This document shows positions 4,273 to 63,334 of a stretch of DNA of 64,000 nt, in pieces; the first letter of the stretch is position 1, and each line of letters opens with the position of its first letter. Below the pieces are notes generated by a model. The model saw only the letters and a list, made by a program, of their open reading frames with translations, was not told the origin of the DNA and did not search any database. A program made the position numbers and the translations under genes. The stretch is from positions 290,687 to 354,686 of the forward strand of contig CALUHR010000013.1 of the NCBI GenBank assembly GCA_944320495.1. Reading direction: 5' to 3'. The DNA comes from Candidatus Methanomethylophilaceae archaeon. Its GTDB lineage: Archaea; Thermoplasmatota; Thermoplasmata; Methanomassiliicoccales; Methanomethylophilaceae.

Positions 4273-4835
4273 CCAACCTCGTCACGCCGCTCACCGAGGA
4301 GACCGTCAGGTCCCTCAGGCTCGGGGACACCGTGTTCGTGAACGGGCCCATCGTCACCGGCAGGGACGAGGCGCACATCAGGGCGCTGGGGCTGAGGGCC
4401 GAGGGGAAGGAGACCCCTCCGCAGCTGGACGGATGCGTCCTCTACCACTGCGGGCCGATCATGAGGCAGACCGAGGACGGATGGCAGGTCGTGGCGGCCG
4501 GGCCCACCACCTCCGCCAGGATGAACCGCCTCGAGCCCGAGATGATCCGCGAGTTCGGCATCAGGGCGATCATCGGGAAGGGCGGCATGTCGGCAGAGGT
4601 CGCGGAGGCCATGCGCGAGTGCGGGTGCGTCTATCTCGCGGCCACCGGCGGTGCCGCGGTGTCCCTCGCCGAGGGTCTGGGCGCCTGCACGGGCGTGGAA
4701 TGGCTGGATCTCGGGATGGCCGAGGCACTCTGGAGCTTCCGCGCGGACCGTCTCGGGCCTCTGATCGTCGCGATGGACGCCGAGGGCAACAGCCTCTACG
4801 AGCAGGTCCGCGGCTCCCTGGTCAGGGACGCTCGA
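4269..4835 (+). CDS. Fe-S hydro-lyase (fumarate hydratase) beta subunit
   Basis: TGRDEAH, YHCGPI, GPTTSARM, IGKGGM motifs; first in-frame CGA at 4833-4835 (standard-code end 4862). Confidence 0.9.
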
Positions 4836-5751
4836 TCTCGTCCTCTTCCTCGTACTGGCTGATGTCGTCCACGACCACGATGCCCGAGTCGGGCATCCTG
4901 GACTTGCGGATCAGGAGCAGCACGGCGAGCAGGACGGCCCCGGTGAGGACCATGCCCAGCGCCAGCATGGCGTGGGGCATGTCCAGCCCTCCGAGGAAGT
5001 CTATGCCGAAGTCGTTGGGGGAGATCTCGAGCCTCACCGGTGTCCCATCGGACGTGCTGGCGGTAATCTCCTCCGATGACGAGAACCCGTTGCAGGATGC
5101 CGTGAGGACGTAGCTGCCGTAGGGGAGTTTAATCTCGAAGTACCCCTCCGCGTCCGTCGTGGCGGTGTACTGCCTGCCCTCGGGGGTATGCGCGATGACG
5201 GTGGCCCCCTCGATGCCCCTGCCGGTCTCCGAGGACCTGACGGTGCCGTAGACGGTGCCCTCGGTCAGGGCCATCGCGACGGGGTTGGCCGAGGACCCGT
5301 CCCCGGTCAGGGCGTACTTGCCCTCTTCGTCGGGATTGACGCCAGAGATGTCGAAGGACACGATGTTCTTGTCCGAACTGCCTTCCACGGTGGCCATCGT
5401 CCCGGGCAGCGTCCTGACCATGTATCCAGTGAGTTCGAAGTGGATGTACGCCGCGCCCGAATCGGCGGCGTAGGTGAACTCGAACCTCCCGGAGTCGTCG
5501 GTGTGGGTGGAGGCGAGGACCCCCATGTCGGCGTCCAGGAGCTCGACCAGCACATCGGCCAGGGGCACGTTCTTCTCCTGGCCCGAGATGTTCGAGACGT
5601 AGCCGTAGATGGTGTACTCGGTCGGGGGCTCCGGTCCGGGGTCCTCCCCGCCCTCGTCGGCGCCTATGTCCGATCCAGCGGCGGACACCGGCTGGACCAG
5701 CAGGGCGATTGCCAGAATCGCGGCGATCACCAGAATGACATCGCGCCTCAT
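4822..5751 (-). CDS. Membrane-anchored surface protein with two carboxypeptidase-regulatory-like (prealbumin-fold) domains
   Basis: N-terminal signal peptide, two T(T)D..G.F repeats, C-terminal TM helix and acidic tail. Confidence 0.7.
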   Translation of the reverse strand: MRRDVILVIAAILAIALLVQPVSAAGSDIGADEGGEDPGPEPPTEYTIYGYVSNISGQEKNVPLADVLVELLDADMGVLASTHTDDSGRFEFTYAADSGAAYIHFELTGYMVRTLPGTMATVEGSSDKNIVSFDISGVNPDEEGKYALTGDGSSANPVAMALTEGTVYGTVRSSETGRGIEGATVIAHTPEGRQYTATTDAEGYFEIKLPYGSYVLTASCNGFSSSEEITASTSDGTPVRLEISPNDFGIDFLGGLDMPHAMLALGMVLTGAVLLAVLLLIRKSRMPDSGIVVVDDISQYEEEDEIERP

Positions 5752-5871
5752 GGACCTTGAACCGTCGGCCTTCTTTTTAATCTATCCCGTTGCCGGCGCG
5801 GCATCCGCGGGTGCTCGGAACACCGTTTGCAAAGACTTTTTACCAGGGGACTGTTGGGGTTTCCGATTCAG

Positions 5872-8800
5872 ATGATCGAGCGGGTGGACAGGACATACAC
5901 CAAGGAAGAGGTAATGTCGCTCATGGAGCCACTCATCTCCACGTGGTTCGATGAGAGGTTCGGGGATCTCACCATCCCCCAGGCGAAGGCCATCCCCGTC
6001 ATCCACCAGAGGCGCAGCGTGCTCGTATCCTCCCCGACGGGATCGGGCAAGACCCTCACCGCGTTCACCAGCATCATCAATGAGCTCACCCGCTACGCGA
6101 GGGAGGGCACCCTCGAGGAGAGGGTCTACTGCATCTACGTCTCGCCGCTCAAGGCCCTGGCCAACGACGTCAACCGCAACCTGAACGAGCCTCTCGCACA
6201 GATGCGCGAGCTCGCCGCCGAGCGCGGGATGAACGTCCCGGACATACGCGTCGCCGTCCGTTCAGGGGACACGCCCCAGAACGAGAGGCAGAGGATGGTC
6301 CGCCATCCGCCGCACATCCTCATCACCACCCCGGAGAGCCTGGCGCTGATCCTCTCCGCGCCCAAGTTCAGCGAGGCGTTCAAGAGCGTCGAGTGGGTGA
6401 TCCTCGACGAGATCCACGACATCTGCGACTCCAAGAGGGGGGCCTTTCTGTCCCTCACGCTGGAGAGGCTGAGGGAGCACTGCGACAGGGACTTCGTGAG
6501 GATCGGGCTCTCCGCGACCCTGGCCCCCATAGAGTCGATAGCGGCGTACCTGGTCGGGTGCAACCCCGACGGCACGCCCCGCGACGTCGCCCTCATCGAG
6601 TCCGGCTCGAAGAAGCAGCTCGATCTGAAGGTGATCTGCCCCGCGGCAGACATGACCGCGCTGCCCTCGGACATCGTCAACTCGATGATGTACGACATGC
6701 TGAAGGAGCTGATCGACGAGCACGACACGACGCTCGTCTTCACCAACACCCGCTCCGGGGCGGAGAGCGTCGTCTACAAGCTCAAGGAGCGCGGCCTGGA
6801 GAGCGTCGAGGTGCACCACAGCTCCCTCGGCAAGGAGATCAGGCTCGACGTGGAGGAGAGGCTCAAGCACGGTCAGATCAAGTGCGTGGTGTCCTCCACG
6901 TCGCTGGAGCTGGGCATAGACATCGGGTCCGTGGACCTGGTGTGCCAGATCGGCTCCCCGAAGTCGGTCGCCAAAGGGCTCCAGAGGATAGGCAGGAGCG
7001 GGCACAGCTTCGGCAAGGTGGCCAAGGGCCGCCTGCTGGTGTTCGACCCGGACGACCTCGTGGAGTGCGCGGTCATGTGCCGCGCCGCCCACCGCGGGGA
7101 CATAGACCGCGTGGGGATCCCGGAGAACTGCCTGGACGTCCTCTCCCAGACGCTGGTGGGCATGAGCCTGGACCGCAAGTGGGACGTCCGCGAGGCGTAC
7201 GACCTCGTGAGGGGGTCCTACTGCTACCGCACGCTCACCGAGCAGAGCTTCACCGAGGTGCTCCGCTACCTGGGCAGCAAGGACGACTTCGAGGGCGTCT
7301 ACTCCAAGATATGGTACGACCCGGAGGACGGCCAGTTCGGCAAGAAGAAGGGCTCCAGGATGATCTACTTCATGAACCTGGGCACGATCCCCGAGGAGGC
7401 CAACTACCGGGTGGTGACCAACCACGGCTCCACCGTCGGCGAGCTCTCCGAGAAGTTCGTGGAGAGGCTCTCGCCGAGGGACGTATTCGTCCTCGGGGGG
7501 CGCTCGTTCGAGTTCGTCCGCTCCAAGGGCATGACCGCCTACGTCAAGGAGGCCAGCGGGAGGAAGCCCACCGTGCCCTCCTGGGCCGGCGAGATGCTTC
7601 CCCGCAGCTTCGACCTGTCCATGGACATAGCCAGGTTCCGCGGGGAGATGGAGTCCGTCATCGGCATGGACGACCGCGAGGCGGTCGCCGGCATCTCCAG
7701 GGACTTCGACGTGGACGAGGGCTCCGCCAGGAGCATCCTCTCGTACTTCAGGGAGCAGCAGGCCGTCGCGGGCTTCATCCCGGACGCATCCAGGCTCGCC
7801 GTGGAGGAGTACATCGACCCGTCCGGCAACCAGAAGCTGGTGTTCCACTTCCCGTTCGGGCGCAGGGTCAACGATGCCCTGTCCCGCGCCTACGCCTACA
7901 GGCTGACCACGGCCATCGGGGCGAACGTCTCCGTGACGATCTCGGACGACAGCTTCATGCTGGGTCTCCCGAGGAAGGTGGACCCGGCCACCGTCCCCGG
8001 CATGATACGCTCCGCGGAGCTGGAGCCCGTGCTGAGGAAGGCCATCCGCGACTCCGAGCTCTTCAAGCTCAGGTTCAGGCACACCGCCTCCCGGAGCTTC
8101 ATGGTCCTGCGGAACTACATGGGCCGCCCGATATCGGTCAACAGGCAGCAGGTCCGCTCTTCCTATCTGCTGGAGGCGATGGGCGACATGGAGAACGTGC
8201 CCGTTATCGAGGAGACCTACCGCGAGGTACTGGAGGACGACATGGACATCAAGAGCGCCCGCCAGGTGCTGGAGATGATCGAGTCCGGGGAGATGTCCGT
8301 GTCCACGATCAGATACACAGGCACCCCGTCCCCGTTCGCCCACTCCGCGATCCTGTCCGGGTTCTCGGACATCGTCCTCATGGAGGACCGCTCCGCACTG
8401 CTCAGGGAGCTCCACCGGAAGGTCCTGTACCGTGCGCTGGGCGACACCGTGGGCGAGTTCGAGTTCACAGAGGACCAGATAGTCCCGTATTTCGCGCAGA
8501 AGCCCCCGAGGGCCGCGTGCAGGGAGGACATCCCGAAGCTGCTGGCCGTCACCGGTCCGCTGCAGGCCCTGAGGCAGAGGGGCAGGAACGTGTACGCATA
8601 CACGGACGCCGACAAGGCGACGGTGGACGGCTGGATACGCGACCTCATCAACGACGGCACCCTCGGGACCGTGTACCTCGACGAGACCCACGTCATGCTG
8701 GCGTCGGAGATCCCGTACTACGCGGCGGCCACGAGGAAGGACAGGACCCTGAACGAGACGGACAGGGACGTGCTGTCCCGCATCGGGGACCGCACCCCGC

Positions 8801-11250
8801 TCTCCGAGGTCGCGTCCGAGCTGGAGATCAGCGATGACAAGGCCTACCGCTCGTCCAGGAAGCTCGAGTCCATGTACCTGGTCGCCAGGACCGAGATAAC
8901 CGGGAACAACCGCTGGCTCTACTCCCGTGCCGAGTATCCGGAGACGGACCGCTCCGCGGCGATAGACCGCATAGTGCTCCGCTACCTGGAGTGCTTCGCC
9001 CCCGCCACCGTGCAGGAGGTCGCCTACGCGCTCTCGCTGGAGGATTCGGAGGCGAGGAGCTCCCTCGAGTCGCTGTGCGCCGAGGAGGAGGTCGTCAAGG
9101 GACGCTTCCTGATCTCCGAGAGCGACCAGTACATGCTGAAGATAGACCACATGCGCCTGAGGGCCGGCAAGGACAACGTGTTCGACTACGAGTCCGTGGA
9201 GCGCCACCGCCTGACCAAGGGCGAGAGGTTCGGGTCCATCCGCGAGTACTTCGAGTTCTACGGCTCCGCCGGCAGCGAGCTGGACGTGTACCAGAGGGTG
9301 GACGGATTCAGCCTCGCAGAGTGGCAGGGCATGCGCAGGTCCGGGGAGATCCTCCTCGGCAGGTTCGTCAGGGGCAGGGTCAGATTCGTCCTCCGCGAGG
9401 ACGCGGACAGGTTCGCGGCGTTCCGCCACGACGAGACCCAGCCCGGGGACGAGAGGGTGACCGAGGCGATAGGGAGGCTCGGACGTGCGACGTTCAGACA
9501 GCTCATCGCGGCCACCGGCATGGAGAAGGACGCCCTCAAGGAGGCGGTGCTCAGGGTGGACCGCTCGCTCAAGGTCATCCGCGACTTCGACGACAGGGAG
9601 GACTGGGGTACCGAGAACACCTACGCCCTGTACGAGCCCGGGGTTCCGGAGGGGGACCCGGCGCTGGACCTGACCGAGAGGGCGATACGCGCCTACGGCC
9701 CGGTGCCGTCCGGGTCCATGAGGTTCATAACGGGGCTGTCCGCGGAGGAGACCGAGGCGGCCGCCGCCAGGATAGGCGCGGAGACCATCCTGGTGGGCGA
9801 GGGCCAGAGTCCGATGCTCGTGATGCATGACGAGGTCCAGCTCCTGGAGCGCGTGCCCGAGCAGGAGTTCCCGGTCAGGGTGCTGTCGCTCTCCGATCCC
9901 GACATCGGGTCCAAATGGGCCGAGATAACGTCCCGCTACGGGGACAGGCTGGTCTACCCTCTGGCCAGGGGCGACACCGTCGTCGGCGCCCTGGAGATGT
10001 GGGAGATGGCGGGGGTCATAGACATCCGCGGCATGGACATGGACTCGCCGGGGATGCTCCCGGAGGTCCTCGAGGCGGTGGACGTCATCATGGGGTTCTA
10101 CAGGCAGAAGGGCATGGAGATCGTGCGCATCCGCGAGGTCCTCGGCAAGGACGCCGCCGATCTCGACGAGGGGACGGTCGCCGTCCTCGTCTCCCACGGA
10201 TACCACGAGGTCAACGGATTCTACGCCAAGGGAAGGTTCTCCCCGTGGACCGTGCCCGGGGAGCTCCTCACGGCCCTGGCCATCAGGAGGCAGGGCGTCC
10301 CGCGCATGGACCGCCTTCCCGATGCGGCCGCGCTCCTCGAGGCTCGCGGGTACATCCGCGGGGACCAGGAGCTGCCGATCCGCGTGAGGGACCAGTCCAG
10401 CCTGAAGAAGCAGCTAGAGGGCACGGGGGCGGTGAAGACCGCGCTCCTCCCGTCGTACATGGGCTACGCCAGCCCCGCGGAGGCGTCGCTCTACCGCGCG
10501 GCCAAGTCGATCAAGCTCAGCGAGCCGGCGAAGACCGTGCTCGGCATCATACGCAAGTCCGGGGCGGCGTCGAAGAAGAGGCTTGTCATGGACTCCCCCT
10601 ACTCGGACGACCTGACCTCCGACGCCATATCGGAGCTGGTCCGCGGGACCGTCATCGGCCAGGGCGCCGATTCAATGTACGTCGAGATACCGGATTCCGG
10701 CATGGGCCGCCACGAGGCCCTCATGGAAGTAGCCCGCAGGCACTTCGCCGGTTTCGGTTCGTTCTCCGCGGACATCATTTCCGGGTTCCTCGAGTGCAGG
10801 ATGCCCGAGACGCGCGCGGTGCTCGCAGACCTCGAGGACGAGGGGTTCCTCCAGAAGGGGTTCTTCGCCGAGGGCGACCCGACCCTCAGGTGGATGAGGT
10901 CCGAGGACGTCGGCAGGGAGCCCCGCGGGTTCGCCGAGGCTTTTGTCCTTAACACCCAGGACAACCTGAGCCTTTACCTCCGCGAGATGATCAAGGGCCA
11001 CTGCGAGTCGGCCAGGTCCGTGGTGATGCAGGGTCCGGCCATCATCGGCTCGTTCAAGGGCAAGATTTGCCCCTCCGGCGCGAAGGTGGAGGAGTTCGAG
11101 GGCAACGACCGCGCATCCAGGGTGATCAAGGAGACAGCCCAGGCCTGCGGCGTCAGGCTGGAGACCCAGAGGCAGCGCGAGGACGACGACTGGGACGTGT
11201 CGGAGTTCTACACGAAGCTGAACCTGGGGTCGAGGCTGGACCGCCACCGA
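5872..11250 (+). CDS. lhr: Long-form Lhr-family SF2 helicase (about 1790 aa)
   Basis: SSPTGSGKT, DEIH, GLSAT, HHSSL, QRIGRSGH motifs plus a long C-terminal extension; the only CGA is at 11248-11250 (standard-code end 11262). Confidence 0.9.
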
Positions 11251-11302: not shown

Positions 11303-11686
11303 ATGAAGATACCGTGCGAGATCGTCGTCTGGCAGGTCCTGCCGCTCATCCGCAGGGAGCTCGCCAAGGAGCTGGTCCAGGTCCACAGGCTCTCCCAGGC
11401 CGAGGTCGCCAGGAGGTTCGGCGTGACCGATGCGGCCGTCTCGCAGTATCTGACCAAGAAGCGCGGCGGCGAGTACTCGGACAGTCCCAGCTATCCCGAC
11501 TTCATCAAGGCGGTCTCCGATTCCGCGGCCGCGATCGCCAACGGCGCCGAGGTCTCCGAGGAGGTCTGCAGACTGTGCATCGTCGTCAAGCGCTGCGGCC
11601 TGCTGTCGGAGATCTACCACGAGCAGACCGGCGCGTATCCCCCGAAGTGCGCGGGCGCGTACGTCAGGGAGTCCGTCGACTCGCGA
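11303..11686 (+). CDS. HTH transcriptional regulator with Cys-containing C-terminus
   Basis: PCE..V..VLPLIRRELA, SQAEVARRFGVTDAAVSQY HTH; ends CGA-TGA (standard-code end 11689). Confidence 0.8.
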
Positions 11687-21689: not shown

Positions 21690-21848
21690 ATGGAGCCAGA
21701 CAGGATCTTCATCGACATCAAGACGTGCGACATGACCCTCTCGCAGGTCATGCTCGAGATCGCGCGCCTTCAGTCGGAGAATCCGGAGTACGAGATCTTC
21801 ATGGACGGGGACCGCTACGCCATCGTGGGGCGCAGGAGGATCGGACGA
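21690..21848 (+). CDS. Small hypothetical protein (52 aa)
   Basis: GGAGG upstream; ends in CGA overlapping the next ATG (CGATG); standard-code end is TAG at 21872. Confidence 0.6.
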
Positions 21849-22390
21849 TGGGACGCGGAAGGATCACGATAGGACTCTACAACTCGTACGACCAGAACTT
21901 CAGGGAGCCCCACAGGCGCGTCATAGCCCGCGCGGGGGACCTCGCGAGGGCGTATGACATGGGCCTCGCACTCTTCGGCTTCCCGATCCCGGAGGATGCC
22001 CGCACGCCCATGCAGATCGCGGAATGGGTGGCAGGGACCACCAGCATCGGCGGCCACGGGAAGAACTTCCTGGAGATGGCGGAGTCCGGCAGGTTCAACT
22101 GCTTCCCATATCCAGGGAAGGGCTTCCCTCCCCAGCTGGGGGAGGTGGTCCTCACCACCTGCAGACCGGACCCGAAGAGGCAACTCTCGCTCGGGCAGGT
22201 GGCCGAGATGGTCGAGGGCGGCCAGAGCATCACGCTCCTGTTCGGCATAGGCCCTCACGGCGTCCCCAAGGACGTCATGAGGATCCCCCGCTACAACCTC
22301 GACATCACCCCCGGGGGCTTCTCGCTGGAGACCGCCACCGCGCTGGGGGCGGTCACCGGAGCGCTGGCATCGAGGCTCGGGATGATCTGA
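21848..22390 (+). CDS. DUF531-family (SPOUT-like) protein
   Basis: TIGLYNSYD..F.EPHRRVIARA, FGIGPHG, SLETATALG. Confidence 0.8.
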   Translation: MGRGRITIGLYNSYDQNFREPHRRVIARAGDLARAYDMGLALFGFPIPEDARTPMQIAEWVAGTTSIGGHGKNFLEMAESGRFNCFPYPGKGFPPQLGEVVLTTCRPDPKRQLSLGQVAEMVEGGQSITLLFGIGPHGVPKDVMRIPRYNLDITPGGFSLETATALGAVTGALASRLGMI

Positions 22391-23272
22391 GGACTCGAGT
22401 CTTTCCAACGAGTAGTCCAGGATCTTCTCCTTGCGGGCTGAGAGGATGGTCATGTAGAACTCCTTCTGGAGGTCCCCTATCTCCTCGCAGCTGTCAATTG
22501 TCCCATAGATGACATCCATGTCGATTCTGGGCAGGATGCGGATCAACGCTTCGTTGCATTCGGGATTCGACAGCGATGAGATGTATTCGAAGTAATTGAT
22601 CTTCTTATTGCCCATCTGGATTGCGGAATTGGGCCAAACGAACACTCTGTTGTCGATTTCACGCGGATCGTCGAGGACCTTCCTGTAGTCCGAGACTCTC
22701 AGCTGCGGGAACAGGCACGATCCGCAGTCGAATATCGGAGCAATCGTCGCAGTCTGTCTGTCATCATCGATGAGGAATCCCCAGTTTCCGTTGTGCCTGT
22801 CGAAGTTGCCGAGGAACGCATCGCAGATGAACATGTCCCAGAAGAACGATTTCAGCACGCTGTGGTCTATCCAATGCTGTTCCATGATGGCCGCATCGAT
22901 ATCATCGAGCTCGGTCCCGTATCCGCTCTCGCTCGTCTGGATGCATGTGTTCTTCAGCGAACCGAAATCCGCGAATCTCAATCCGCCCTCGGTGAAATCC
23001 CTGCAGGCGACGACAGTCTTCGACACCCCGCGATCATCGACGAATCTGCCTAGCAGGGTCTCCTGGGCGTTCACGCCCATCCCGCGAAGGACCTGGCAGC
23101 AGATATGCTCGGATATGCAGCTGTTGGCGTACTCTCCCTCGCCCCTCGATTTGGCCCTGGGAGGGAATTTCAGCATGTACTGGTGACCATCGTATCTGAC
23201 CGAGATCTTTTGGCCGTTCGCGCCGTTGAACGTCTTGAACGGATTGCGCGGGCAATCGGTGAAATCAATCAT
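22370..23272 (-). CDS. HipA-like/CtkA-family Ser/Thr kinase, copy 1 (300 aa)
   Basis: GANGQK, YMLKFPP, NFDRHNGNWG, FDCGSCLFPQ; CGA at 22370-22372 (standard code runs on to 21815). Confidence 0.85.
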
Positions 23273-23714
23273 CTCCGTCACCGATCCCGAGATACTTGGC
23301 ACGCAGGTATGCGGCCTGTCCTTCGCTGATTCTCCCGCAGTGGAGGTTCCAGTTGATGGATCCGTACAGTTCATCGAGGAAGCAATCCAGGTGCAGGCAG
23401 CCGTCTTCACATTCCACCAGGTCTCTGATGGCGGTCTCCAGGTCGGGAGGGAGGTTGACCTCCAGATATGATTGGTCCCTCGGAGTTCCGTTGTTGCGGG
23501 TGATGACGCCGGTCTCCAGGTCCATCACCTCCTCTACGGGCATGTCCAACGCATCGGCCAGGCGACTGACCGTCCTGGCGGAGCAGTTCTGCAGAGATGT
23601 CTTCCCCGTGCATATGTTGGAAAGCGTGGACCACGGTATCCCACTCGTCTTGGCCAACCTGTATCTCGTCAGGCCCTTCTCGGCCATGACGTCCGACAGC
23701 GTCCTCCCGCTCAT
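23265..23714 (-). CDS. XRE-HTH protein with a conserved helical C-domain; putative antitoxin
   Basis: GLTRYRLAKTSGIPWSTLSNI HTH; LPPD..ELYG.IN..LR.KYL domain; ATGATTGA overlap with kinase 1. Confidence 0.8.
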   Translation of the reverse strand: MSGRTLSDVMAEKGLTRYRLAKTSGIPWSTLSNICTGKTSLQNCSARTVSRLADALDMPVEEVMDLETGVITRNNGTPRDQSYLEVNLPPDLETAIRDLVECEDGCLHLDCFLDELYGSINWNLHCGRISEGQAAYLRAKYLGIGDGDD

Positions 23715-23755
23715 GGTGATGTATCATATCACCGATATATCAGTGTGCCGACACA

Positions 23756-24664
23756 TCGTCCCTTGTGCTCGAGCAGGTCCATGGCCCTGTCGATGATGCC
23801 GGTCTTGCGGGCGTAGATCATCGTGTAGTAGAACTGGCGCTGGACCTCGGACAGGCCCGGAGTCTCCGCGATGATCCTGCCAATCTTATCCATGTTGATG
23901 CGGCCACTCATGTAGGCGAGGGCGGCGTCGCACTCCGCATTGTCGATGGAGGTGATGTAATCGTAGTAGTTGATCCTGGCGCGGTTGATCATGAGGGTGG
24001 ACTTGGGGAACAGGCGTACCCTGTCGTCGATCTCGTAGGGTCTGTTCAGCACCTTCTCCATCCTGTCCTCCGTGACCTGCGGGAACAGGCACGAGCCGCA
24101 GTCGTAGACCGGGGCGATGTCCGCGTGCTTGTTGACCTCGTCCACCAGGATCCCCCAGTTGCCGTTGTGGCGGTCGAAGTTGGCCAGGAGGGCGTCCCCG
24201 ATGAACTGCCTCCAGAAGAAGGACCTCAATCTGTCCGGGACGATCAGGCGCTGCTCGTCGATGGCGTTCATGATCGAGTTCAGGTCGGTGTTGTAGCCGT
24301 TGAGGTCGTCGTCGAGGCAGGTGTTCTTCAGATGCGCGAACTCGATGAGGGTCTTCCCGATATCGGCGGCGAAGTCCCTGCAGGCGACCACGTTGCTGGT
24401 GTTTCCGCTCTGGTCGGTGTAGGTGCCCAGCAGGGTCTCCTGGGCGTCCATGCCCATGGACTGGAAGACGTGGCACGCCAGGTACTCGGTGATGTGCGAG
24501 TTGACGTAGCTCAGGTCGGCAATCTTCCCGGGCTTCGGGGGGAACTTGAGCATGTAGCCGTGTCCCTGGTAGAATATGCTAATCTTGTTCCCGTTGGCTC
24601 CGCCGTATGCGCGGTAGTCGTTCCTCTCGCAGTCGCTGAAATCGATCAGGTCCATAGTCGTCAT
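23756..24664 (-). CDS. HipA-like/CtkA-family kinase, copy 2 (302 aa)
   Basis: GANGNK, YMLKFPP, NFDRHNGNWG, YDCGSCLFPQ; CGA at 23756-23758 (standard-code end 23729). Confidence 0.85.
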
Positions 24665-24890
24665 CTTCGTTGAAGAGATACTTCCGCCGGAGTCTGGCCG
24701 CGGCCTCGGGGGACAGGGCTCCGCCCCATTGGTTGGCGTTTATCGCGCCGTACAGCTCCCCCCAGAGGCAGTCCAGGAGGGGCGATCCGCTCTTCAGGCC
24801 CTCGACGTACTCCTTGATGGCGAGGGCCACATCCGGGGGCAGGTCCCGTTCGGGACCCGGGGGCTCATCCCCGCGCTCAGTAGTGGTCAT
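24642..24890 (-). CDS. HTH-less homolog of the putative antitoxin C-domain (82 aa)
   Basis: LPPDVALAI..LLDCLWGELYGAIN..LRRKYL aligns with 23265-23714; CGA at 24642-24644 (standard-code end 24579). Confidence 0.7.
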
Positions 24891-25944: not shown

Positions 25945-27333
25945 TCGGAGGGCCTCGCCGCCGTGCCTCATGAGCTCGAACATGCCGATCCCCGTGACCT
26001 TCCTGAACTCCCTGGTGGCGAGCCACATCATTAGGCCCCCTCCGAAGACCTCCGCCACGAGCAGGCTGTAGAATATTGCGTCCATGGACACGGTGCACGA
26101 GACCATCAGGAACGCCACGATGACCAGATTCCTGATGAGCGACGACACCATGGAGAGCTGGGCGAGGCGCAGCGACTCCAGGATAGACGATCCGATGTCG
26201 ATGAGGCCCATGAACGGTATGAGCACGGCGTATATCCTCAGGACATGGGCGAACTGGGGGCGGAGCTCCGCCATGGACTCGGACTGCGTGAGCGGCACCA
26301 TGGCCCAGTCGGCGAACACGAACAGGACCGCCGCGATGCCCACCATGGCGACCATCGTTATCCTCAGAGAGTAGGCGCAGGCGTCGGCCGCCCTCCTGTG
26401 GTCGTCCTGACCCATCGCGGCCGAGACTATGGGGATGATCGACGACCCGGTGGCCTGGGAGACCACCTCGGCCAGGGACACGAACCTCCAGGGGATGTTG
26501 TAGAGGGCGGCCCCCACGGAACCTCCGCAGATGATGACGAAGATTCTCTGGACCATGGACATGAAGCTTATGAGAGTGGTCTCGACGGTCTTGGGCACCC
26601 CCACGAACATCACGTCCCTGATCATGGCGAGGTCGAACCTGAACCCCCTGAACGACATCCTCAGGTACACCGATCCGCGGGCGAACCACCACAGTCCCAC
26701 GAGCATCGACGCGACGGTGGATATCGAAGTGGCCCAGCCGGCCCCCGCGATGCCCATGTCCAGGACGAACATGAACAGCGGGTCCAGGACGACGTTCATC
26801 ACAGCGGCGACCAGGAGCATGACCGTGCTGCGCCTGGCCGCGCCCTCGGCCCTGAGTATGCCCGCTATCACGCCGTCCAGCACCAGGGGCAGGGTGCAGA
26901 CCACGATGGGCACGATGTAGTCGAGGCACAGGTCCCGGATGTCATCCGCCCCCATCATCGAGATGGACGGGCCCAGCAGGAGGTACATGACCGGCGTGAG
27001 CGCGACCGCCACGACCGCGCTGACGGCCATGGTCTGCGACACGAGGGCGTCGGCCCTCGCCTTGTCGCCCCTGCCGAGGCATCTGGCAATCGACGTCGAC
27101 GCCCCCACGCCTATGCCGGTCCCGATGCCAGACACTATCCAGTACACCGGGGATATGGTGGAGGCCGCGGAGCTCGGGTCCACCCCGAGGAGGGAGCACC
27201 ACGCGGTGTCCGCGAAGCTGTTGATCTGCACCACGAGGAACGACACTATGAGCGGACCGGACATGGCGAGGACGGCCCTCCGGGGGTCGCCGAGCATGAC
27301 CTTCAGGTCCCTCGTGACCTCTGCCTCGCTCAT
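25945..27333 (-). CDS. MATE-family efflux transporter
   Basis: About 12 TM segments, MNVVLDPLFM..MGIAGAGWAT; CGA at 25945-25947 (standard-code end 25933). Confidence 0.9.
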
Positions 27334-28663
27334 GCGACCTCTTCCCGTACTTCCCGATGCGCTCCAGCCACAGCCTCATGCCGCGCTCGTAGCCGTTGTC
27401 CGAGGGCTCGTAGAACCTCCTGTCCACGAGCTCGTCGGGCAGGTACTGCTGGTCGGTGTAGTGGTTGGGGAAGTCGTGGGGATAGAGGTACCCGACCCCG
27501 TGGCCCAGGTCCTTGGCGTTGCCGTAGTGCGCGTCCTTCAGATGGGCGGGGACGCCGCTGGTGGGCTCGGTCCTCACGGACTCCATCGCGGACGTTATGG
27601 CGTTGATCGCCGAGTTGCTCTTGGGGGCGCACGCCACGTACGCCGCCGCCTGGGAGAGTATGATCTGGGACTCCGGCATCCCGATGCGCTCCACGGCCTC
27701 GGATGCCGACACGGCGAGGACCAGCGCCTGCGGGTCGGCGTTGCCGACGTCCTCCGCGGCGCAGATCATGATCCTGCGGGCGATGAACCGGACGTCCTCG
27801 CCGGCGTACAGCATCCTCGCCAGATAGTACACCGCCGCGTCCGGGTCCGATCCGCGCATGCTCTTGATGAACGCGGATATCGTGTCGTAGTGGTTGTCCC
27901 CGTCGCGGTCGTAGTTGAGGATCCTGCGCTGGATGCACTCGGAGGCGACCTCCGCGGTTATGTGGACCCTGCCGTCCTCCCCCGGGAGGGTGGTCAGGGC
28001 CCCCAGCTCCAGCGCGTTCAGCGCGGCGCGGGCGTCCCCGTTGGCCATGTCGGCAAGGAACGAGACGGCGTCGTCGTCCGCGTCGACGTTCAGCCTGCCC
28101 AGCCCCCTGTCGGGGTCGGACAGCGCCCTCCTAAGAAGCTTCTCGAGGTCCTTCTGGCACAGCGGTTTCAGCTCGAATATGCGGGAGCGGGAGACCAGCG
28201 CGCGGTTGACCTCGAAGTAGGGGTTCTCCGTGGTGGCGCCGATGAGGGTCACGGTGCCGTCCTCCACGAACGGGAGCAGATAGTCCTGCTGCGCCTTGTT
28301 GAAGCGATGGATCTCGTCCACGAAGAGGATGGTCCTGCGCTCCTCCATGCCGAGGGCGTCCCTCGCCTTCTGCACGGCGTCCTCCATGTCCTTCTTGCCC
28401 GCGGTGGTGGCGTTAATCTGGACGAACCTGGAGTGGGTGGTGTTGGCGATGACCTGCGCGATCGTCGTCTTCCCGGTGCCCGGCGGGCCGTACAGGATGA
28501 GCGAGCCGATCCTGTCGGCGCGGATGGCCCTGGACAGAAGCCTGTCGGGGCCTATGATGTGCTCCTGTCCGACCACCTCGTCGAGCGTGCGCGGCCTCAT
28601 GCGGCTGGCGAGCGGGGCCTCCCGCTCCAGGACGCCCCTGCGGTTGTATTCGAACAGGTCCAT
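27326..28663 (-). CDS. rarA: Replication-associated recombination protein A (445 aa)
   Basis: PLASRMRP, GPPGTGKTT, VDEIHRFNK, SAFIKSMRGSDPDAA; CGA at 27326-27328 (standard code runs to 26942). Confidence 0.93.
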
Positions 28664-35066: not shown

Positions 35067-35129
35067 CCCTGTCGACGGCATGCCGTCCAGGCGCACCCTT
35101 ATTATGCGCGCGCGTCATGGAAGGTCATC

Positions 35130-38615: not shown

Positions 38616-39272
38616 TCGGACGTTGACCTTCACGTCCACCCTGTCGCCGTCCTCGAGGCTGAGGGTCCTGCGGAGGTGGTACTGGCAGATGATCTCGATG
38701 ATGTCCGCGTAGTGGGACCTCTCGGGGACCACGATGGCGCAGTCGATGTTGCGTATCCTCGCCTTGTAGGCGACGACGTTGCCGAAGCTGCGGCCGTTGT
38801 CCGTGAATCCGTTAATCGGCACCCCGGCCACGCTCTTGATGACGTCGAGCTTCCCGACGTCGTCCGGGTCCACATGGATGTTCAGGGTGCCCTCGAAGGG
38901 CTCGAACCCGAGTTTGGACTTGAACTGATCCAGATAGCCGGGCTGGCAGATGTAGTAGCCGCCCTCGCCCATCCCCGACTGCACCGCGCCGTGGATGGTG
39001 ATGTGGTCCGTGAGCTCGAAGATCCTGCGGTACTCGTTGTACTCCTTGCGCAGGTCGTCTATCCCCTTCTGGGTCAGCTTGATGCGCTGCCTGCGGGCGC
39101 CCAGGTCCCTGACGATGTACTTCTCCTCCAGGAGCTCCAGAATCCTCTTGGAGGCAGATTGCTGGCTCATCTCGAGCGCTTCGCCGAGCTCCCTCGAGGA
39201 GATGGCGATGTAATCGTCCATGGCTCCAAGCAGGGCGAGCTTCCTGAGTGCGAAGGAGTACTTCTCGTCCAT
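38616..39272 (-). CDS. ribK: CTP-dependent riboflavin kinase with N-terminal wHTH (218 aa)
   Basis: SQQSASKR HTH, SGMGEGGYY, PFEGTLN, PERSHY, LEDGDRV; CGA at 38616-38618 (standard code runs to 37488). Confidence 0.92.
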
Positions 39273-50290: not shown

Positions 50291-50764
50291 TCGGTCCGTT
50301 ATTGGTGTTGAGCACTCTGTCGTGACGTTCAGGTCGAACACGATGCGCGGATCCAGGCGATTCTGGATGATGTCATCTATGAGATCGAACATGCCGTTGT
50401 AATCGTCCGCCGACTCGTCGGTGACGCCCCAGTCGCACTTCTCCATGCAGAACATCAGGAAATCCAGGAAGTCATAGGCCGCCTCGTCTCCGCCCAGTTT
50501 GATGAAGCTCTCCAGATCCCGGCAGAACTTCTCGGCCATGCGTTTGCGGAACATATCTCTCTCGCATCCGCAAAGGCACTGGTTGATGCGGATGCGGGTC
50601 TCCTCCCTGTCCAGCAGGGACCCCTCCTTCGCGAGCTTCTCCAGTGTCTCCATCACGGTGTCGTAGCCCAGCTTCTCGGCGAGGCAGATTACGATCCTCT
50701 TGAACATGCAGTGGTTCATTGTGTTCGTGATATCCTCAATAACAAGTGCATCACAGTAATCCAT
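50291..50764 (-). CDS. Hypothetical Cys-rich protein (157 aa)
   Basis: Clean ORF with an AT-rich upstream region; CGA at 50291-50293 (standard-code TAG at 50282). Confidence 0.55.
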
Positions 50765-54180: not shown

Positions 54181-54189
54181 TTGGGGGTT

Positions 54190-57945: not shown

Positions 57946-58031
57946 GTTGAGGCACCCATATCGGGATTTCATTAAAAACATGTCGGACGAGACATGACGC
58001 GAAGCGGTGAAGGATGATGAAAAAGGGAGAA

Positions 58032-58107
58032 TGGCGCCGCCACACGGATTTGAACCGAGGACCTTGTGATTAACAGTCACACGCTCTACCTGCTGAGCTA
58101 CGGCGGC
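58032..58107 (-). tRNA. tRNA-Asn(GTT), CCA encoded
   Basis: GCCGCCG acceptor strand, anticodon arm TGTGA-CTGTTAA-TCACA. Confidence 0.95.
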
Positions 58108-58160
58108 TTGTAGGATTGCGTGAATGAAGGGCTTGTATTTATAATTAACTGTATAGAATT

Positions 58161-58181
58161 GGGCCGGCCGTACGCCGGCCC
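58161..58181 (-). terminator. GC hairpin after the wHTH gene
   Basis: GGGCCGGC/GCCGGCCC. Confidence 0.4.
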
Positions 58182-58189
58182 GTGGAAAA

Positions 58190-58576: not shown

Positions 58577-58703
58577 GTACTCATAGCCAGTTCGCACATT
58601 CATCCGCGTCGTCGGTCGCGCTATGGGAATCGATTCCCGGCAGCGCCCGTCCGCCCCTCCACTATAATAAAATAAGGAACGGGGCATCAAGACCGCGATT
58701 CAA

Positions 58704-59945: not shown

Positions 59946-59952
59946 GGTTCAC

Positions 59953-61059
59953 ATGTCGGAAAGCAAGGAGTTCAAGGCGGACAGCCTTGAGAAGGTAAGG
60001 CAGGCGGTCAACGTCTGCACCATGTGCGGATTCTGCAAGAGCGTCTGCCCGTCGTTCAAATCGATCGGGTGGGATTCCGCGCTGTCCCGCGGGCGCATAG
60101 TGCTGACGTACGGTCTGCTGACCGGCGACCTCCAGCCGGACGAGTCGCTCGTCAGGAACATGTACACGTGCACCACCTGCGCGGACTGCGTCCGCAGGTG
60201 CCCGTCCAAGGTCGAGATCGTGGACATCATCGAGCTCTGCCGCGCGGACCTCGTGAAGGCGGGATGCATCCTGCCCAAGCACAAGTTGATGTGCGACAAC
60301 ATCATGTCCACCGGCAACCCCTTCGGCGAGAAGGCCACCAGGGAGGAGGCGTTGGGCAGGAAGCCGCACGCGGCAAAGGTCGGATACTTCGCCGGATGCA
60401 CCGCCACGTACCGCTCCAAGGAGACTGCCAGGGCGACGATGTCCATCTTCGACAAGCTCGGCGTCGACTTCACCACCCTCGACGAGACCTGCTGCGGATC
60501 CGTCATGCAGAGGGTCGGATGGCCCCAGGGCGACGTCACGGAGCTGATGAGGAAGAACGTCGAGGCGATCAAGGCCCTCGGCGTCGAGACCCTCGTCCTC
60601 TCCTGCGCCGGATGCTACAGGATGTTCAAGCTGGAGTACCCCAAGTACGTGGACGTGCCCTTCGAAGTCCTCCACATCACGGAGTTCCTGGCCAGGCAGG
60701 ACCTGAAGCTAAAGCCGATGGACGGCGTGAAGGCCACGTACCACGACCCCTGCCACCTGGGCAGGCACTGCGGTGTGTACGAGCCCCCGCGCGAGGTCAT
60801 CGCGAAGATCCCCGGCCTCGAGTTCAAGGAGATGAAGTACAACAGGAAGACCAGCCACTGCTGCGGAGGCGGCGGAGGAGTCAGGTCCGCCTACCCGGAG
60901 GAGGCAATGGACATCGCCTCCACCAGGCTCGACGAGGCCGGGTCGGCCGACCTCATGATCACGTGCTGCCCGTTCTGCGTCAACAACCTGTCCGCCGCCA
61001 AGGGCGACAGGAAGATCGAGGTCCGCGACCTCGTGGAGCTCATCGACGAGCTGATGTGA
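59953..61059 (+). CDS. HdrD/GlcF-like (Fe-S)-binding protein, second paralog
   Basis: CTMCGFCKSVCP, CTTCADCVRRCP, two CCG domains. Confidence 0.88.
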   Translation: MSESKEFKADSLEKVRQAVNVCTMCGFCKSVCPSFKSIGWDSALSRGRIVLTYGLLTGDLQPDESLVRNMYTCTTCADCVRRCPSKVEIVDIIELCRADLVKAGCILPKHKLMCDNIMSTGNPFGEKATREEALGRKPHAAKVGYFAGCTATYRSKETARATMSIFDKLGVDFTTLDETCCGSVMQRVGWPQGDVTELMRKNVEAIKALGVETLVLSCAGCYRMFKLEYPKYVDVPFEVLHITEFLARQDLKLKPMDGVKATYHDPCHLGRHCGVYEPPREVIAKIPGLEFKEMKYNRKTSHCCGGGGGVRSAYPEEAMDIASTRLDEAGSADLMITCCPFCVNNLSAAKGDRKIEVRDLVELIDELM

Positions 61060-61060
61060 T

Positions 61061-61855
61061 TTGTCATCCAAACCCTGGAGGGCCCTTCGGGGCCCTCCCA
61101 CCATAATGGGGATCCTGAACGTGACCCCCGACTCGTTCTCCGACGGCGGCCTCTGGACCGATCCGACGGCGGCCGTCCGCCACGCGTTCGACATGGTCGA
61201 CCAGGGGGCCGGCGTGATAGACATCGGTGCGGAGTCCACACGCCCCAACGCCTCCCCGGTGACCGCCCAGGAGGAACTGGCCAGGCTGGAGCCGGTCCTG
61301 AAGGAGCTGGCCCCGTCCGTGGACGTCCCCATATCGGTGGACACCATGAAGGCAGAGGTGGCCGAGCGCTGCATAGCCCTCGGCGCCACGATCGTCAACG
61401 ACGTCCTCGGTCTCCGCGGACCGGGTATGACGGAGGTCTGCGCGTCGACCGGGGTCGACGTCGTCATCATGCATATGAATGGTATGCCCGAGTCCATGCC
61501 GGCGGCCATGGGCGACGGATTCATGGACGAGATCAGGGGGTTCCTGGAGGCCCGCGCATCGTACGCCCTGGACGCCGGCATCCGCAGGGAATCCATCATC
61601 CTGGATCCGGGGATAGGGTTCGGCAAGGATCCTGTCCAGAACTCCGAGATACTGGAGAACAGCTCGTATTTCTCATGCGGAGGGTATCCGGTTCTCTCCG
61701 CATCGTCACGCAAGCGGTTCCTGGCAACCCGCTATCCCGGCATGGACAGGGACGACGCATCCGCGGAGGCGGCGCTGGTCGCGGTCCGCTCCGGTGCCGC
61801 GATGGTCCGCGTCCACGACGTGGCCCGCACCGCCGAGCTTCTGGGGGTCCGCTGA
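61061..61855 (+). CDS. folP: Dihydropteroate synthase
   Basis: MGILNVTPDSFSDGG, DIGAESTRP, DPGIGFGK, SRKRF, VRVHDV; start uncertain. Confidence 0.92.
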   Translation: MSSKPWRALRGPPTIMGILNVTPDSFSDGGLWTDPTAAVRHAFDMVDQGAGVIDIGAESTRPNASPVTAQEELARLEPVLKELAPSVDVPISVDTMKAEVAERCIALGATIVNDVLGLRGPGMTEVCASTGVDVVIMHMNGMPESMPAAMGDGFMDEIRGFLEARASYALDAGIRRESIILDPGIGFGKDPVQNSEILENSSYFSCGGYPVLSASSRKRFLATRYPGMDRDDASAEAALVAVRSGAAMVRVHDVARTAELLGVR

Positions 61856-61859
61856 GGTC

Positions 61860-62087
61860 TCAGAGGTACTTCAGGGCGGTGCCGACGGCCATCACGATGA
61901 CGCATACGATGGCCGCGGAGCCCCAGAACAGGTACTCCTTCCTCTTCTCCGCCTTCTCGCGGGCGATCTCGGCCGCCCTGCATTCCTCGTCGCAGAACTC
62001 CTGACCGAACGGGACGGGGTCCCCGCAGAACTTGCAGTGGGAATGCTCGGGAAGTCTGAGGCCGCCTACCATGCCGAGCCCTATCAT
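61860..62087 (-). CDS. DUF2116-family Zn-ribbon membrane protein
   Basis: PEHSHCKFCG.PVP..QEFCDEEC plus a TM helix. Confidence 0.8.
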   Translation of the reverse strand: MIGLGMVGGLRLPEHSHCKFCGDPVPFGQEFCDEECRAAEIAREKAEKRKEYLFWGSAAIVCVIVMAVGTALKYL

Positions 62088-62170
62088 TCGCTATTAGATA
62101 AAATGTGACTGGTTAGATTATAAGCGGGCGCGGTCCATCCGTCGATGCCGCTCGGCGGCAGGAGATGCGA

Positions 62171-62404
62171 ATGAGGTTCACACTGCTGAACAGGAAGAGC
62201 AACGCGGCCATCAGGATGGACATGGATCCGTCCGATAGGGTCGGGGAGATAATGGAGACCGTATCCGAGGCATGGGGCTGCGGCAACATCGTCCTGAGGG
62301 ACGGCTATTCGCTCCTGGAACCCGACAGTCTCACCGGCAGCTGCATCTCGGAGGGGGATCTCGTGGAGGTGCTCCCGGATCCGTTCCAGCAGCAGACGGT
62401 TTGA
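62171..62404 (+). CDS. Ubiquitin-like (YukD/EsaB-type beta-grasp) small protein
   Basis: Pattern V.EI...V...W....VLR.G...L.P......I.EGD.VEVLPDP; GGAG spacing favours the ATG at 62171; family judged by eye. Confidence 0.55.
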   Translation: MRFTLLNRKSNAAIRMDMDPSDRVGEIMETVSEAWGCGNIVLRDGYSLLEPDSLTGSCISEGDLVEVLPDPFQQQTV

Positions 62405-62432
62405 AATAGGGGGTGGCTCTGGCCGGCGTCGG

Positions 62433-62786
62433 ATGACAGACAGCAGAGGAAGGATGGGCACGAGGGCGGAGGTCCTGTTCGGGGCCAACGCCATGATCTC
62501 GATCGCCGAGGCCGCGGAGCGGTCCCAGGCGCATGGCGGACTAAGAGGCGGATGGGAGTCAGATGCGAACGGTAGGTTCGCCAGGGTCGAAGGGGCCGGT
62601 GTGCCGGAGGTGGGGATGTACTTCCCGTCCGAGGGCACCGAGCCCGACGATTCCATGTGCGACATCCTGCGCTCGGCCATCGGGGAGGGAGTGCTGGTCG
62701 TCATCGATCCGTACGCCGGGGAGTTGGCCGTGTACATCGTCGATGGTGACGGGTGCAGGACGGCCTCGGCGCTGGTCTCAGAATGA
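62433..62786 (+). CDS. Degenerate JAB/MPN-like protein
   Basis: VGMYFPSEG..SMCD and VLVVIDPY resemble VGWYHSHP..S..D and ..ViDP; the Zn-binding His residues are absent. Confidence 0.45.
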   Translation: MTDSRGRMGTRAEVLFGANAMISIAEAAERSQAHGGLRGGWESDANGRFARVEGAGVPEVGMYFPSEGTEPDDSMCDILRSAIGEGVLVVIDPYAGELAVYIVDGDGCRTASALVSE

Positions 62787-62788
62787 GA

Positions 62789-63334
62789 TCGGACCCAGAT
62801 CGCGTGGCGGCGGCGCATGTCGTCCTCGGAGATCTCCTCGCGGGACATTATCTCGCTGACGATGCCGTCGAACAGCAGCAGCGCGGAGTCCTCGAAGACG
62901 GTCCCCAGGGGGGCCACCCTGTGCAGTCCCTCGCCCTCGGGAACGCTCATGACCAGGGACACGTCGGAGACGCGGGTCAGCGGGCTTCCGCTGGTGCCCG
63001 TTATGCAGAATATCTCGGACCCTATGCGACGGGCGATTTCCGCTGTCTGCACAACCGACGACGTCCTGCCGGTGTAGGATATGAGGAGGGTGAGGTCCTC
63101 CTTCCCGATTATGGGGGTGGTCATCTCGCCCACGAAATGCACGTCGAGCCCGAGCTGGACGAGACGCACCGCGAACATCTGGCCCACCAGCCCGGAGCGG
63201 CCGGACCCGTAGACGAAGACCTTGCGATGGCTCAGGATCCCGGAGACTAGCTCCTCCCTGGCGTCGGCGTCGACCGAGCGGACTGCGGTCCTGCAGGTGT
63301 CCAGCAGGGTGTCCAGGTCGTCCAACTCACTCAC
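62789..63334 (-). CDS. hxlB: 6-phospho-3-hexuloisomerase-like SIS protein (181 aa)
   Basis: VYGSGRSGLV, VGEMTTP, PLGTVFE, MRRRHAIWV then CGA at 62789-62791 (standard code runs to 62084). Confidence 0.88.

Follow-up and report, generated by a model that had tools for sequence, protein, structure and literature searches.

CGA as a probable fourth translation-end signal in a genus of Methanomethylophilaceae archaea

Introduction

Changes that turn a sense codon into a stop are known from mitochondria, in which AGA and AGG in vertebrates, UCA in Scenedesmus and UUA in Thraustochytrium end translation (NCBI tables 2, 22 and 23); to our knowledge, no bacterium, archaeon or eukaryotic nucleus has undergone such a change. 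Here we analyse the codon CGA in a 64,000-nucleotide stretch of DNA (the window) from a Candidatus Methanomethylophilaceae archaeon (GenBank assembly GCA_944320495.1, contig CALUHR010000013.1, positions 290,687 to 354,686; G000:C13:290687-354686 in our numbering), and in the genome around it. An earlier sequence-only reading of the window had proposed a non-standard archaeal code with CGA as a terminator and, as one of three possible mechanisms, loss of tRNA-Arg(UCG) together with an archaeal release factor 1 (aRF1) that tolerates C at the first codon position. Comparative evidence strongly supports the core of this proposal; the tRNA is not lost, and the NIKS and YxCxxxF motifs of aRF1 are unchanged. 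Frames in this genome end at CGA: the codon is absent from gene interiors, lies at the positions of orthologous stops, takes part in stop/start overlaps and is exchanged with TGA at a synonymous rate. We judge it likely, with a probability of roughly 0.7, that in this genus CGA has left the arginine set and become a fourth translation-end signal that swaps with TGA and is leaky, with an autoregulation of aRF1 resembling that of bacterial release factor RF2.

Further mitochondrial sense-to-stop changes have been described in green algae (PMC6821328, PMC6551751). As in the mitochondrial cases, the sense codon vanishes here from coding positions and reappears at gene ends, a change recognised from homologous termini. 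Those cases concern very small organellar genomes, which have few genes and rely on release factors of the bacterial type, whereas the genome studied here is cellular and free-living, with ~350 affected genes and a single aRF1; unlike mitochondria, it has also kept the cognate tRNA, with what would be residual sense reading at two conserved sites. Arginine codons have changed in bacteria as well: CGG is unassigned in Mycoplasma capricolum, CGA and CGG encode tryptophan in Absconditabacteria, and AGG has become methionine and CGG glutamine or tryptophan (Codetta, PMC8629427). The reassignments reported by that screen were to amino acids, and nothing of the sense-to-stop kind was among them. They share with our case a rare codon of the CGN box, signs that it was first lost and then captured, and an altered cognate tRNA, and they differ from it in that the codon took on another amino acid or went unused, whereas here CGA is heavily used as an end signal and the genome is G+C-rich rather than A+T-rich. 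Closest in subject is the KACI preprint (bioRxiv 10.64898/2026.04.02.715157), which floated CGA as a possible stop in two metagenome-assembled genomes (MAGs) of hydrothermal-vent archaea; its own method cannot infer stops, and the question was left open. The vent MAGs are likewise archaeal and lack CGA in recognisable domains, but they belong to another lineage, have ~50% G+C, read CGG as tryptophan and have no tRNA-Arg(UCG); unlike the preprint, we examined stop positions, orthologue ends and the aRF1 site.

Stops with a dual meaning are also established, with UAG serving as pyrrolysine or stop in Methanomassiliicoccales and UGA as selenocysteine. Ambiguous stops in Condylostoma and Blastocrithidia are accompanied by a tRNA-Trp with a 4-bp anticodon stem (cited in PMC13092985). 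These systems resemble ours in that a codon means either 'end' or an amino acid according to the contest between a release factor and a special tRNA with an altered anticodon stem, and in that one of our conserved in-frame CGAs alternates with TAG; the direction is the reverse, since there a stop gains sense, whereas here a sense codon gains a stop meaning and sense reading would be residual. Our literature searches on CGA in Methanomassiliicoccales and on Methanoprimaticola found no report of CGA as a stop, and those on sense-to-stop changes found only the mitochondrial cases and one untested suggestion for other archaea.

Distribution of CGA along coding frames

The genome that contains the window (G000) comprises 1.77 Mb in 14 contigs with 62% G+C. 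It belongs to a genus of Methanomethylophilaceae, here called g1, that includes 'Candidatus Methanoprimaticola sp. MG2' (G013, NZ_JBEQWH01, a 229x SPAdes assembly of this named, cultured strain in RefSeq) and UBA71-type gut MAGs; the nearest other assembly to G000 is G018 (CASFYI01, from ENA). True frames in G000 have a G+C content of ~0.59, ~0.43 and ~0.88 at the first, second and third codon positions (GC1, GC2 and GC3), and this signature was used as an annotation-free marker of where coding starts and stops. Two self-trained codon-usage models were dropped because antisense shadow frames, to which G+C-rich genomes are prone, had entered their training sets and inflated the CGA counts.

Along stop-to-stop open reading frames (ORFs) with the coding signature, CGA is almost confined to the two ends, with 713, 349, 89, 39, 6, 6, 14, 45, 89 and 306 occurrences in successive deciles; the central deciles hold 6 each, per ~45,000 codons. 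For other rare codons, among them CGG, AGA, CGT and CCA, the increase in the last decile is only 1.5- to 2.7-fold. When CGA was counted as a stop, the ends of ~1,440 coding frames were TGA in 1008 (70%), CGA in 350 (24%), TAA in 43 and TAG in 37. In the TAG-ended set, codon periodicity mostly persists downstream or the frame is an antisense shadow, and TAG hardly ever ends a true coding frame; this scarcity is consistent with a pyrrolysine-decoding lineage that avoids amber terminators.

Coding signal is lost after CGA much as it is after TGA, with GC3 falling from 0.87 to 0.58 across the former and from 0.89 to 0.58 across the latter. Each of the 61 sense codons was tested for such a loss, and CGA alone preceded it (0.55, versus at least 0.72 for every other codon); the same test gave 0.57 after TGA and 0.58 after TAA, and CGA was again the sole sense codon with signal loss in G018 and G013. 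From CGA to the next standard stop there is a median of 28 codons, exceeding 100 codons in 104 genes, and run-ons of every length have a GC3 of 0.53-0.62 and 3-5 further CGAs per 100 codons. Among 526 CGAs that follow coding sequence, only 7 have coding signal on both sides, 5 of them between adjacent genes in the same frame. Two in-frame CGAs with coding sequence on both sides remain genome-wide, one in the aRF1 gene and one in the linker of a GmhA-GmhB fusion gene; both are taken up below.

CGA at the positions of orthologous stops

A genome-wide comparison of CGA positions with homologue C-termini, a check suggested in the sequence-only reading, places CGA at gene ends that match orthologue stops. 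First orthologue tables built from all ORFs were dominated by conserved shadow frames and were discarded; the comparison was redone with coding-signature frames only, and counts of internal and terminal CGAs across genomes were taken from 200-kb samples per genome. Among CGA-ended frames of G000, the orthologues in G013 that end at the same aligned residue do so with TGA in 16 cases, CGA in 5 and TAA in 1; in G008, another member of the genus, 12 orthologues have TGA at the same residue and 28 more end within a few residues; and in G018 the corresponding ends are 22 CGA and 7 TGA. Conversely, the G000 codon aligned to a G013 stop was TGA in 79 cases, CGA in 16, TAA in 3 and TAG in 2, with any other codon at most twice, and the counts were similar in comparisons with G008, G134, G128 and G024. 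CGA is the sole sense codon that recurrently aligns to orthologous stops. A clear example is RibK, the CTP-dependent riboflavin kinase of the window, which ends with CGA in G000 and G018 only; its stop in 28 relatives is TGA, TAA or TAG, in most of them at the same aligned residue as the CGA of G000 and in the rest within 4 codons. No internal CGA was found in orthologue alignments of G018, G008, G013 or G065; the apparently 'internal' CGAs of G065 and G013 lay either in frameshifted fragments of a low-quality MAG or in shadow frames.

These alignments bear directly on the possibility that the code is standard and the loss of stops is tolerated, so that CGA remains arginine and proteins extend at the C-terminus into long tails without meaning. 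Tails of this kind are present in public annotation, as in a 573-aa RarA, but other codons, such as TGG, GGA, AGA and TCA, align to orthologous stops no more than 3 times each, versus 7-16 times for CGA; they would cross neighbouring genes in antisense over hundreds of codons if CGA were arginine, and sense CGA is missing from gene interiors. A generic stop-loss model was rejected, as other one-step changes of TGA do not recur at orthologous stops, and we give next to no credence to tolerated stop loss as an explanation of CGA.

Exchange with TGA and dependence on reading frame

G000 and G018 differ at 13.4% of four-fold sites and are therefore independent genomes, and they have 21 CGA ends in common. 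Between them, 9 of 143 shared ends (6.3%) have switched between TGA and CGA, compared with a C/T difference of 4.3% at synonymous pyrimidine sites; as the two rates are close, TGA and CGA behave as synonyms. The distinction between CGA at ends and CGA elsewhere depends on the frame. Out-of-frame CGA is not avoided, with observed/expected ratios of 0.87-0.93 for NCG/A codon pairs and 1.02 for C/GA junctions, and whatever marks the CGAs at ends must hence operate in frame, at the ribosomal A site, which speaks against base-calling error, DNA modification and global C-to-U editing.

An artefact of sequencing, assembly or polishing, or a DNA modification read as C, could in principle have turned TGA into CGA in an organism with the standard code. 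This would have had to occur in a strictly frame-specific manner and alike in G018, G013, G065 and G055, independent assemblies of related genomes from different projects in which the same CGA pattern was confirmed; G000 and G018 would have to share CGA ends despite their divergence at synonymous sites, and the artefact would have to coincide with a tRNA gene whose changes are fixed and an aRF1 gene whose CGA is fixed. The probability of such an artefact is, in our view, vanishingly small.

Editing of C to U in mRNA at CGA sites, whereby the ribosome would meet an ordinary UGA, had also been offered as a cause in the sequence-only reading. Stop-creating CGA-to-UGA editing is known in plant organelles, and a neutral interchange of TGA and CGA would be compatible with it as well; we know, however, of no mRNA editing in archaea. 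A global, frame-blind form did not survive, since thousands of out-of-frame CGAs in genes are not avoided, and editing would thus have to be frame-aware or site-specific. The variable flanks remarked on in the sequence-only reading were borne out, with no motif common to the ~350 sites beyond a bias towards T at the +4 position, and editing would have to pass over the conserved CGAs in aRF1 and GmhA-GmhB. It also leaves the purge of sense CGA and the remodelled tRNA-Arg(UCG) unexplained, and we regard it as very improbable.

The sequence context of CGA ends resembles that of TGA ends. CGATG occurs at 87 of 388 CGA ends (22%), and 50 of these ATGs open a coding frame; CGA therefore fills the classical operon stop/start overlap, for which the equivalents at TGA ends are ATGA (24%) and TGATG (8%). 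The +4 base is T at 54% of CGA ends versus 29% of TGA ends, and A at 7% versus 22%, and TCG and TCC are among the commonest next codons after both. A standard backup stop stands directly after the codon at 6.7% of CGA ends and 3.0% of TGA ends, which would suit a somewhat weaker signal handled by the same machinery.

CGA ends within the window

If CGA is counted as a fourth stop, there are 63 coding-signature frames in the window, of which 46 end with TGA, 15 with CGA, 1 with TAA and 1 with TAG. The sequence-only reading had listed 15 CGA ends of its own, and at every one of them CGA is present on the strand given, in frame and at a gene end:

4833..4835, + strand: CGA end of the ORF at 4250-4835, where the coding signal stops; run-on of 8 codons
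11248..11250, + strand: CGA end of the ~1,800-aa Lhr-like helicase gene (5827-11250)
11684..11686, + strand: CGA end of the ORF at 11303-11686, a CGA-TGA tandem; CGA at the same end in G018
11676..11678, - strand: CGA end of the OGG-like glycosylase gene (12476 down to 11676), with Pfam OGG_N at the N-terminus
21846..21848, + strand: CGA end of a small ORF, in a CGATG stop/start overlap
22370..22372, - strand: CGA end of HipA-like kinase 1, the first CGA of the frame, codon 347 of the standard ORF; Pfam HipA_C upstream
23756..23758, - strand: CGA end of HipA-like kinase 2, the sole CGA of the frame, codon 303; run-on of 8 codons
24642..24644, - strand: CGA end of an 82-aa partner ORF; GC3 0.78 before and 0.48 after
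25945..25947, - strand: CGA end of the ORF from 27333 down to 25945, where the coding-signature frame stops; 3 run-on codons
27326..27328, - strand: CGA end of rarA/mgsA; Pfam MgsA_C (1-166 of 167) ends 9 residues before the CGA; run-on of 127 codons
28706..28708, - strand: CGA end of the ORF from 29770 down to 28706, where the coding-signature frame stops; 11 run-on codons
35064..35066, + strand: CGA end of an FAH-family gene; Pfam FAA_hydrolase (1-214 of 214) ends 3 residues before the CGA
38616..38618, - strand: CGA end of ribK; the Pfam domain (1-121 of 121) ends 2 residues before the CGA
50291..50293, - strand: CGA end of the ORF from 50764 down to 50291, where the coding-signature frame stops; 2 run-on codons
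62789..62791, - strand: CGA end of the SIS-domain (HxlB-like) gene, with the SIS domain upstream; CGA at the same end in G018

Thirteen of the 15 were recovered automatically as ends of coding-signature frames. The other two, 22370(-) and 24642(-), lie in an A+T-richer HipA-like module and were verified by hand as the first in-frame CGA of their frames; the automatic set of 15 includes instead two short ORFs, with CGA at 23749+ and 34331+, that the earlier list lacked. The statement that genes of the window contain no internal CGA is correct, and the two conserved exceptions in the genome, in aRF1 and the GmhA-GmhB linker, both lie outside the window. In the Lhr-like helicase gene, for instance, there is no CGA among the ~1,800 codons before the terminal one.

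Several of these ends can be compared with orthologues. For the ORF ending at 4833, G018 has CGA at the same residue and G008 has TAA within 1-2 residues; the Lhr-like helicase likewise ends with CGA in G018, and with TGA in G008 and TAA in G024 within 5 residues. The OGG-like glycosylase has CGA at the same place in G018 and TGA one residue off in G008, and the FAH-family gene ends with TGA in G008. The standard code would require long run-ons at some of these genes, as had been pointed out for ribK, hxlB, kinase 1 and rarA, and this was borne out: the run-on of ribK has 375 codons and is antisense to purQ, that of the SIS-domain gene has 234 low-complexity codons and that of rarA has 127, while kinase 1 has three more CGAs in its run-on and a GC3 of 0.74 before the first CGA and 0.63 after it. 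The run-on of the 82-aa partner ORF has further CGAs at codons 86, 88 and 91. When translated, the run-ons give low-complexity sequence that passes antisense through neighbouring genes, and no Pfam domain was found in any run-on of the window genes tested. The standard code also fuses the FAH-family gene to purS, a fusion correctly suspected to be false: FAA_hydrolase and PurS are separate Pfam domains in the same frame, with a second CGA at 35073 and the PurS domain (2-76 of 77) beginning 25 codons after the end of the FAH-family gene.

The HipA-like module, at 21815-24890 on the minus strand, is a locally A+T-richer region in which HipA-like kinases with a Pfam HipA_C domain stand in tandem, each accompanied by a small partner ORF; CGA terminates both kinases and the 82-aa partner.

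In-frame CGA codons in aRF1 and GmhA-GmhB

The aRF1 gene of G000 (contig C2, minus strand) has an in-frame CGA at Arg78, codon 78 of 410 and 17 codons past the NIKS motif; the residue aligns with R81 of human eRF1 and with an arginine of solved archaeal aRF1s. The first 14 genus genomes read all have CGA here, and outgroup families have CGC, CGT, CGG, AGA or AGG. A pattern scan over 261 genomes of the order Methanomassiliicoccales, counting readable sites only, found CGA at this position in 52 of 53 genus genomes (AGA stands there in G067), in 14 of 99 from the rest of the family and in 4 of 82 from other families. Among the other genera of the family, CGA at Arg78 occurs in g25 (4/8), g27 (5/14) and g19 (2/5). 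Synonymous sites around the codon, including those downstream, vary freely, the preceding codon is always NCT, and Arg99 of the same gene is encoded by AGG, CGC, AGA or CGT and never by CGA.

No second release-factor paralogue was seen in G000, which has only aRF1 and Pelota, the latter as a second, weak match. As aRF1 is essential and, apart from Pelota, single-copy, its CGA must at times be decoded as a sense codon. The sequence-only reading had named CGA at a conserved internal arginine of an essential gene as an observation that would speak against a stop meaning, and such a codon exists genus-wide in aRF1 itself, while elsewhere in each genome the codon is avoided. A CGA that is fixed at one site while the rest of the genome avoids it argues for a regulatory exception rather than a refutation.

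Bacterial RF2 (prfB) is autoregulated through an in-frame UGA near the start of its gene, which is bypassed by a +1 frameshift at a slippery site with a Shine-Dalgarno-like stimulator. Like prfB, the aRF1 gene carries an early in-frame target codon that is conserved across a clade, so that the abundance of the factor could set its own synthesis. Unlike in prfB, the aRF1 frame continues, and escape would be by plain decoding with tRNA-Arg(UCG): neither a slippery site nor a stimulator for frameshifting was found at the aRF1 CGA, and the only conserved context is the T before it, as part of the fixed NCT codon. The codon would then act as negative feedback, with termination at codon 78 when aRF1 is plentiful and read-through to the full-length factor when it is scarce.

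The aRF1 decoding loops, which the sequence-only reading had suggested inspecting, show no genus-specific change. NIKS, YxCxxxF and E55 are intact in the genus, and the only genus-specific residues of the N domain are D17 and C142; residues beside the motifs (Q for F56 and M for R68, human numbering) are common to family members without CGA stop use. The GTS loop is changed in G000 and G018 only, in which Ser stands at the position of human G31 (G28S in G000; GRSTELIS versus GRGTELIS). In G001 (L229) and G012 (L238), the aRF1 has NIRS in place of the near-universal NIKS.

The second exception lies in the linker of a GmhA-GmhB (heptose isomerase-phosphatase) fusion, at G000:C13:194143-194145 on the minus strand (locus L252, G000:C13:194026-194235). 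There is no start codon after this CGA, and in outgroups a lysine stands there and the fusion is uninterrupted. In 15 genus genomes the linker codon is CGA in 11, TAG in 1 (G017), TAA with a change of frame in 1 (G007) and AGA in 2. A CGA that swaps with TAG or TAA and with AGA looks like what would be a leaky terminator at a domain boundary, and such leakiness may let the locus make two isoforms, one being GmhA by itself and the other the fusion.

tRNA-Arg(UCG) and the reading of CGA

Loss of tRNA-Arg(UCG), which the sequence-only reading had considered as part of one mechanism, has not occurred: ARAGORN found all five arginine isoacceptors in G000, including UCG (C13:413317-413390), and the gene is conserved across the genus, where its stems covary and the gene is therefore under selection. 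Its structure is unusual, however. At the 31.39 pair, A39 stands opposite A31 or C31 in 43 of 43 genus genomes matched by pattern, whereas other family genomes have a Watson-Crick or G.U pair in 88 of 88; G013, which was read separately, has U.C. In G000 and G018, U32 and C38 are also present instead of C32 and A38. A subclade formed by G008, G015 and G007 has a different tRNA-Arg(UCG) gene, missed by BLAST and two patterns and found with a covariance model, in which C33 replaces the near-universal U33 and the 27.43 pair is mismatched. The tRNA-Arg(UCG) genes of outgroups are canonical. Every genus member read has a structurally unusual CGA decoder, and its decoding may be weakened.

One way to accommodate such a tRNA is to suppose that CGA is a 'hungry', unassigned codon rather than a true stop: the ribosome would stall with an empty A site, would be split by Pelota, aEF1-alpha and ABCE1, and the peptide would be freed by peptidyl-tRNA hydrolase. 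The positional evidence fits this equally as well as a true stop, Pelota is present, the aRF1 decoding motifs have no genus-specific change, and a cognate tRNA that is abnormal in every genus member suits poor decoding. But a slow rescue path would be needed for a quarter of all genes; CGA occurs in stop/start overlaps typical of termination-reinitiation; it shares and sharpens the +4 T preference of TGA, as if one factor read both; and unless aRF1 acts on CGA, there is no obvious reason for a strictly conserved CGA in the gene of the release factor. We consider a hungry codon unlikely. The description of an unassigned codon in the sense of CGG in Mycoplasma capricolum, essentially unused in frames and read by no tRNA, does not suit G000, where CGA ends 24% of frames and a tRNA-Arg(UCG) gene exists; M. 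alvus fits it better.

In the reading that we prefer, the single aRF1 would terminate at CGA in competition with the retained, abnormal tRNA-Arg(UCG) and would usually win. CGA would then be a leaky stop, mostly meaning 'end' and occasionally arginine, and the tRNA would have been kept because synthesis of aRF1, and of the GmhA-GmhB fusion, needs the codon to be decoded. In its fullest form, in which CGA would be a genuine fourth stop read by aRF1 throughout the genus, with a sensor codon in aRF1 and a tRNA-Arg(UCG) deliberately weakened and kept to read that sensor, this proposal seems to us somewhat more likely than not.

Several observations weigh on the other side. A structurally plausible tRNA-Arg(UCG) gene has been retained under selection, and anticodon stems of 4 bp make near-cognate reading more frequent in other systems. 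Compared with family members that do not use CGA in this way, the aRF1 of the genus has no substitution of its own in NIKS, YxCxxxF or the GTS loop; these motifs therefore do not account for the acceptance of a first-position C, and an aRF1 acting on CGA would also have to spare CAA and CAG. Finally, it is conservation, and that alone, that suggests the feedback loop in aRF1.

Spread of CGA stops and history of the codon

Among the 200-kb samples, those of the Methanomassiliicoccus-like G024 (18 internal cases in conserved alignments) and of G128 of genus g19 (6 internal cases) use CGA as an ordinary, if rare, sense codon. It is nearly unused in M. alvus (G134, 1,666,795 bp), with no internal and about one terminal case, and never internal in alignments of the g1 members sampled. 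Within g1, its share of ends is ~2-3% in G008 (54% G+C), ~9-15% in G013 (58%), ~17-20% in G018 and 24% in G000; in G013, at least 14 genes within the 220 kb covered end with CGA. Such a series, from near absence to a rising share, is the pattern expected from codon capture, in which loss comes first and is followed by return with a new meaning, and codon capture is its likely origin. On this history, CGA would have become very rare in the family and then been captured as a stop in g1, where G+C pressure on TGA would have raised its use from ~2-3% of ends to 24% in G000.

Consequences and public records

Should CGA prove to be a stop here, the genus would provide the first cellular, non-organellar case of a sense-to-stop reassignment and call for a new code table, and it would follow that an omnipotent factor of the aRF1/eRF1 type can come to act on a C-initial codon. 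The family would then offer a living series of codon-capture intermediates, from M. alvus, in which the codon is nearly unused, through low-GC genus members with 2-3% of ends to G000 with 24%, and aRF1 would be a second, independent release factor that gauges its own level through its own target codon. Methanomethylophilaceae supply PylRS/tRNA-Pyl pairs for genetic-code expansion, and the decoding rules of the family are therefore of applied interest.

Under standard-code annotation, about one protein in four from these genomes acquires a false C-terminal tail or results from a false gene fusion, and database entries on this genus of animal- and human-gut methanogens are distorted accordingly. 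The public annotation of these genomes carries such tails: RarA relatives 97% identical to the G000 protein are 444-446 aa long and stop where G000 has CGA, and the true RarA is ~445 aa. For the window region 26942-28663 (-), the RarA entries of G000 and of two ENA assemblies in the public protein collection are 573 aa long and include the standard-code run-on.

Names in public records call for care as well. Contigs at loci L035, L044, L049, L051-L055, L093 and L095 clearly belong to Methanomassiliicoccales, with RibK 72-87% identical, and come from mislabelled bins filed under bacterial organisms, among them Prevotella hominis, Bacteroides ovatus and Lachnospiraceae bacterium.

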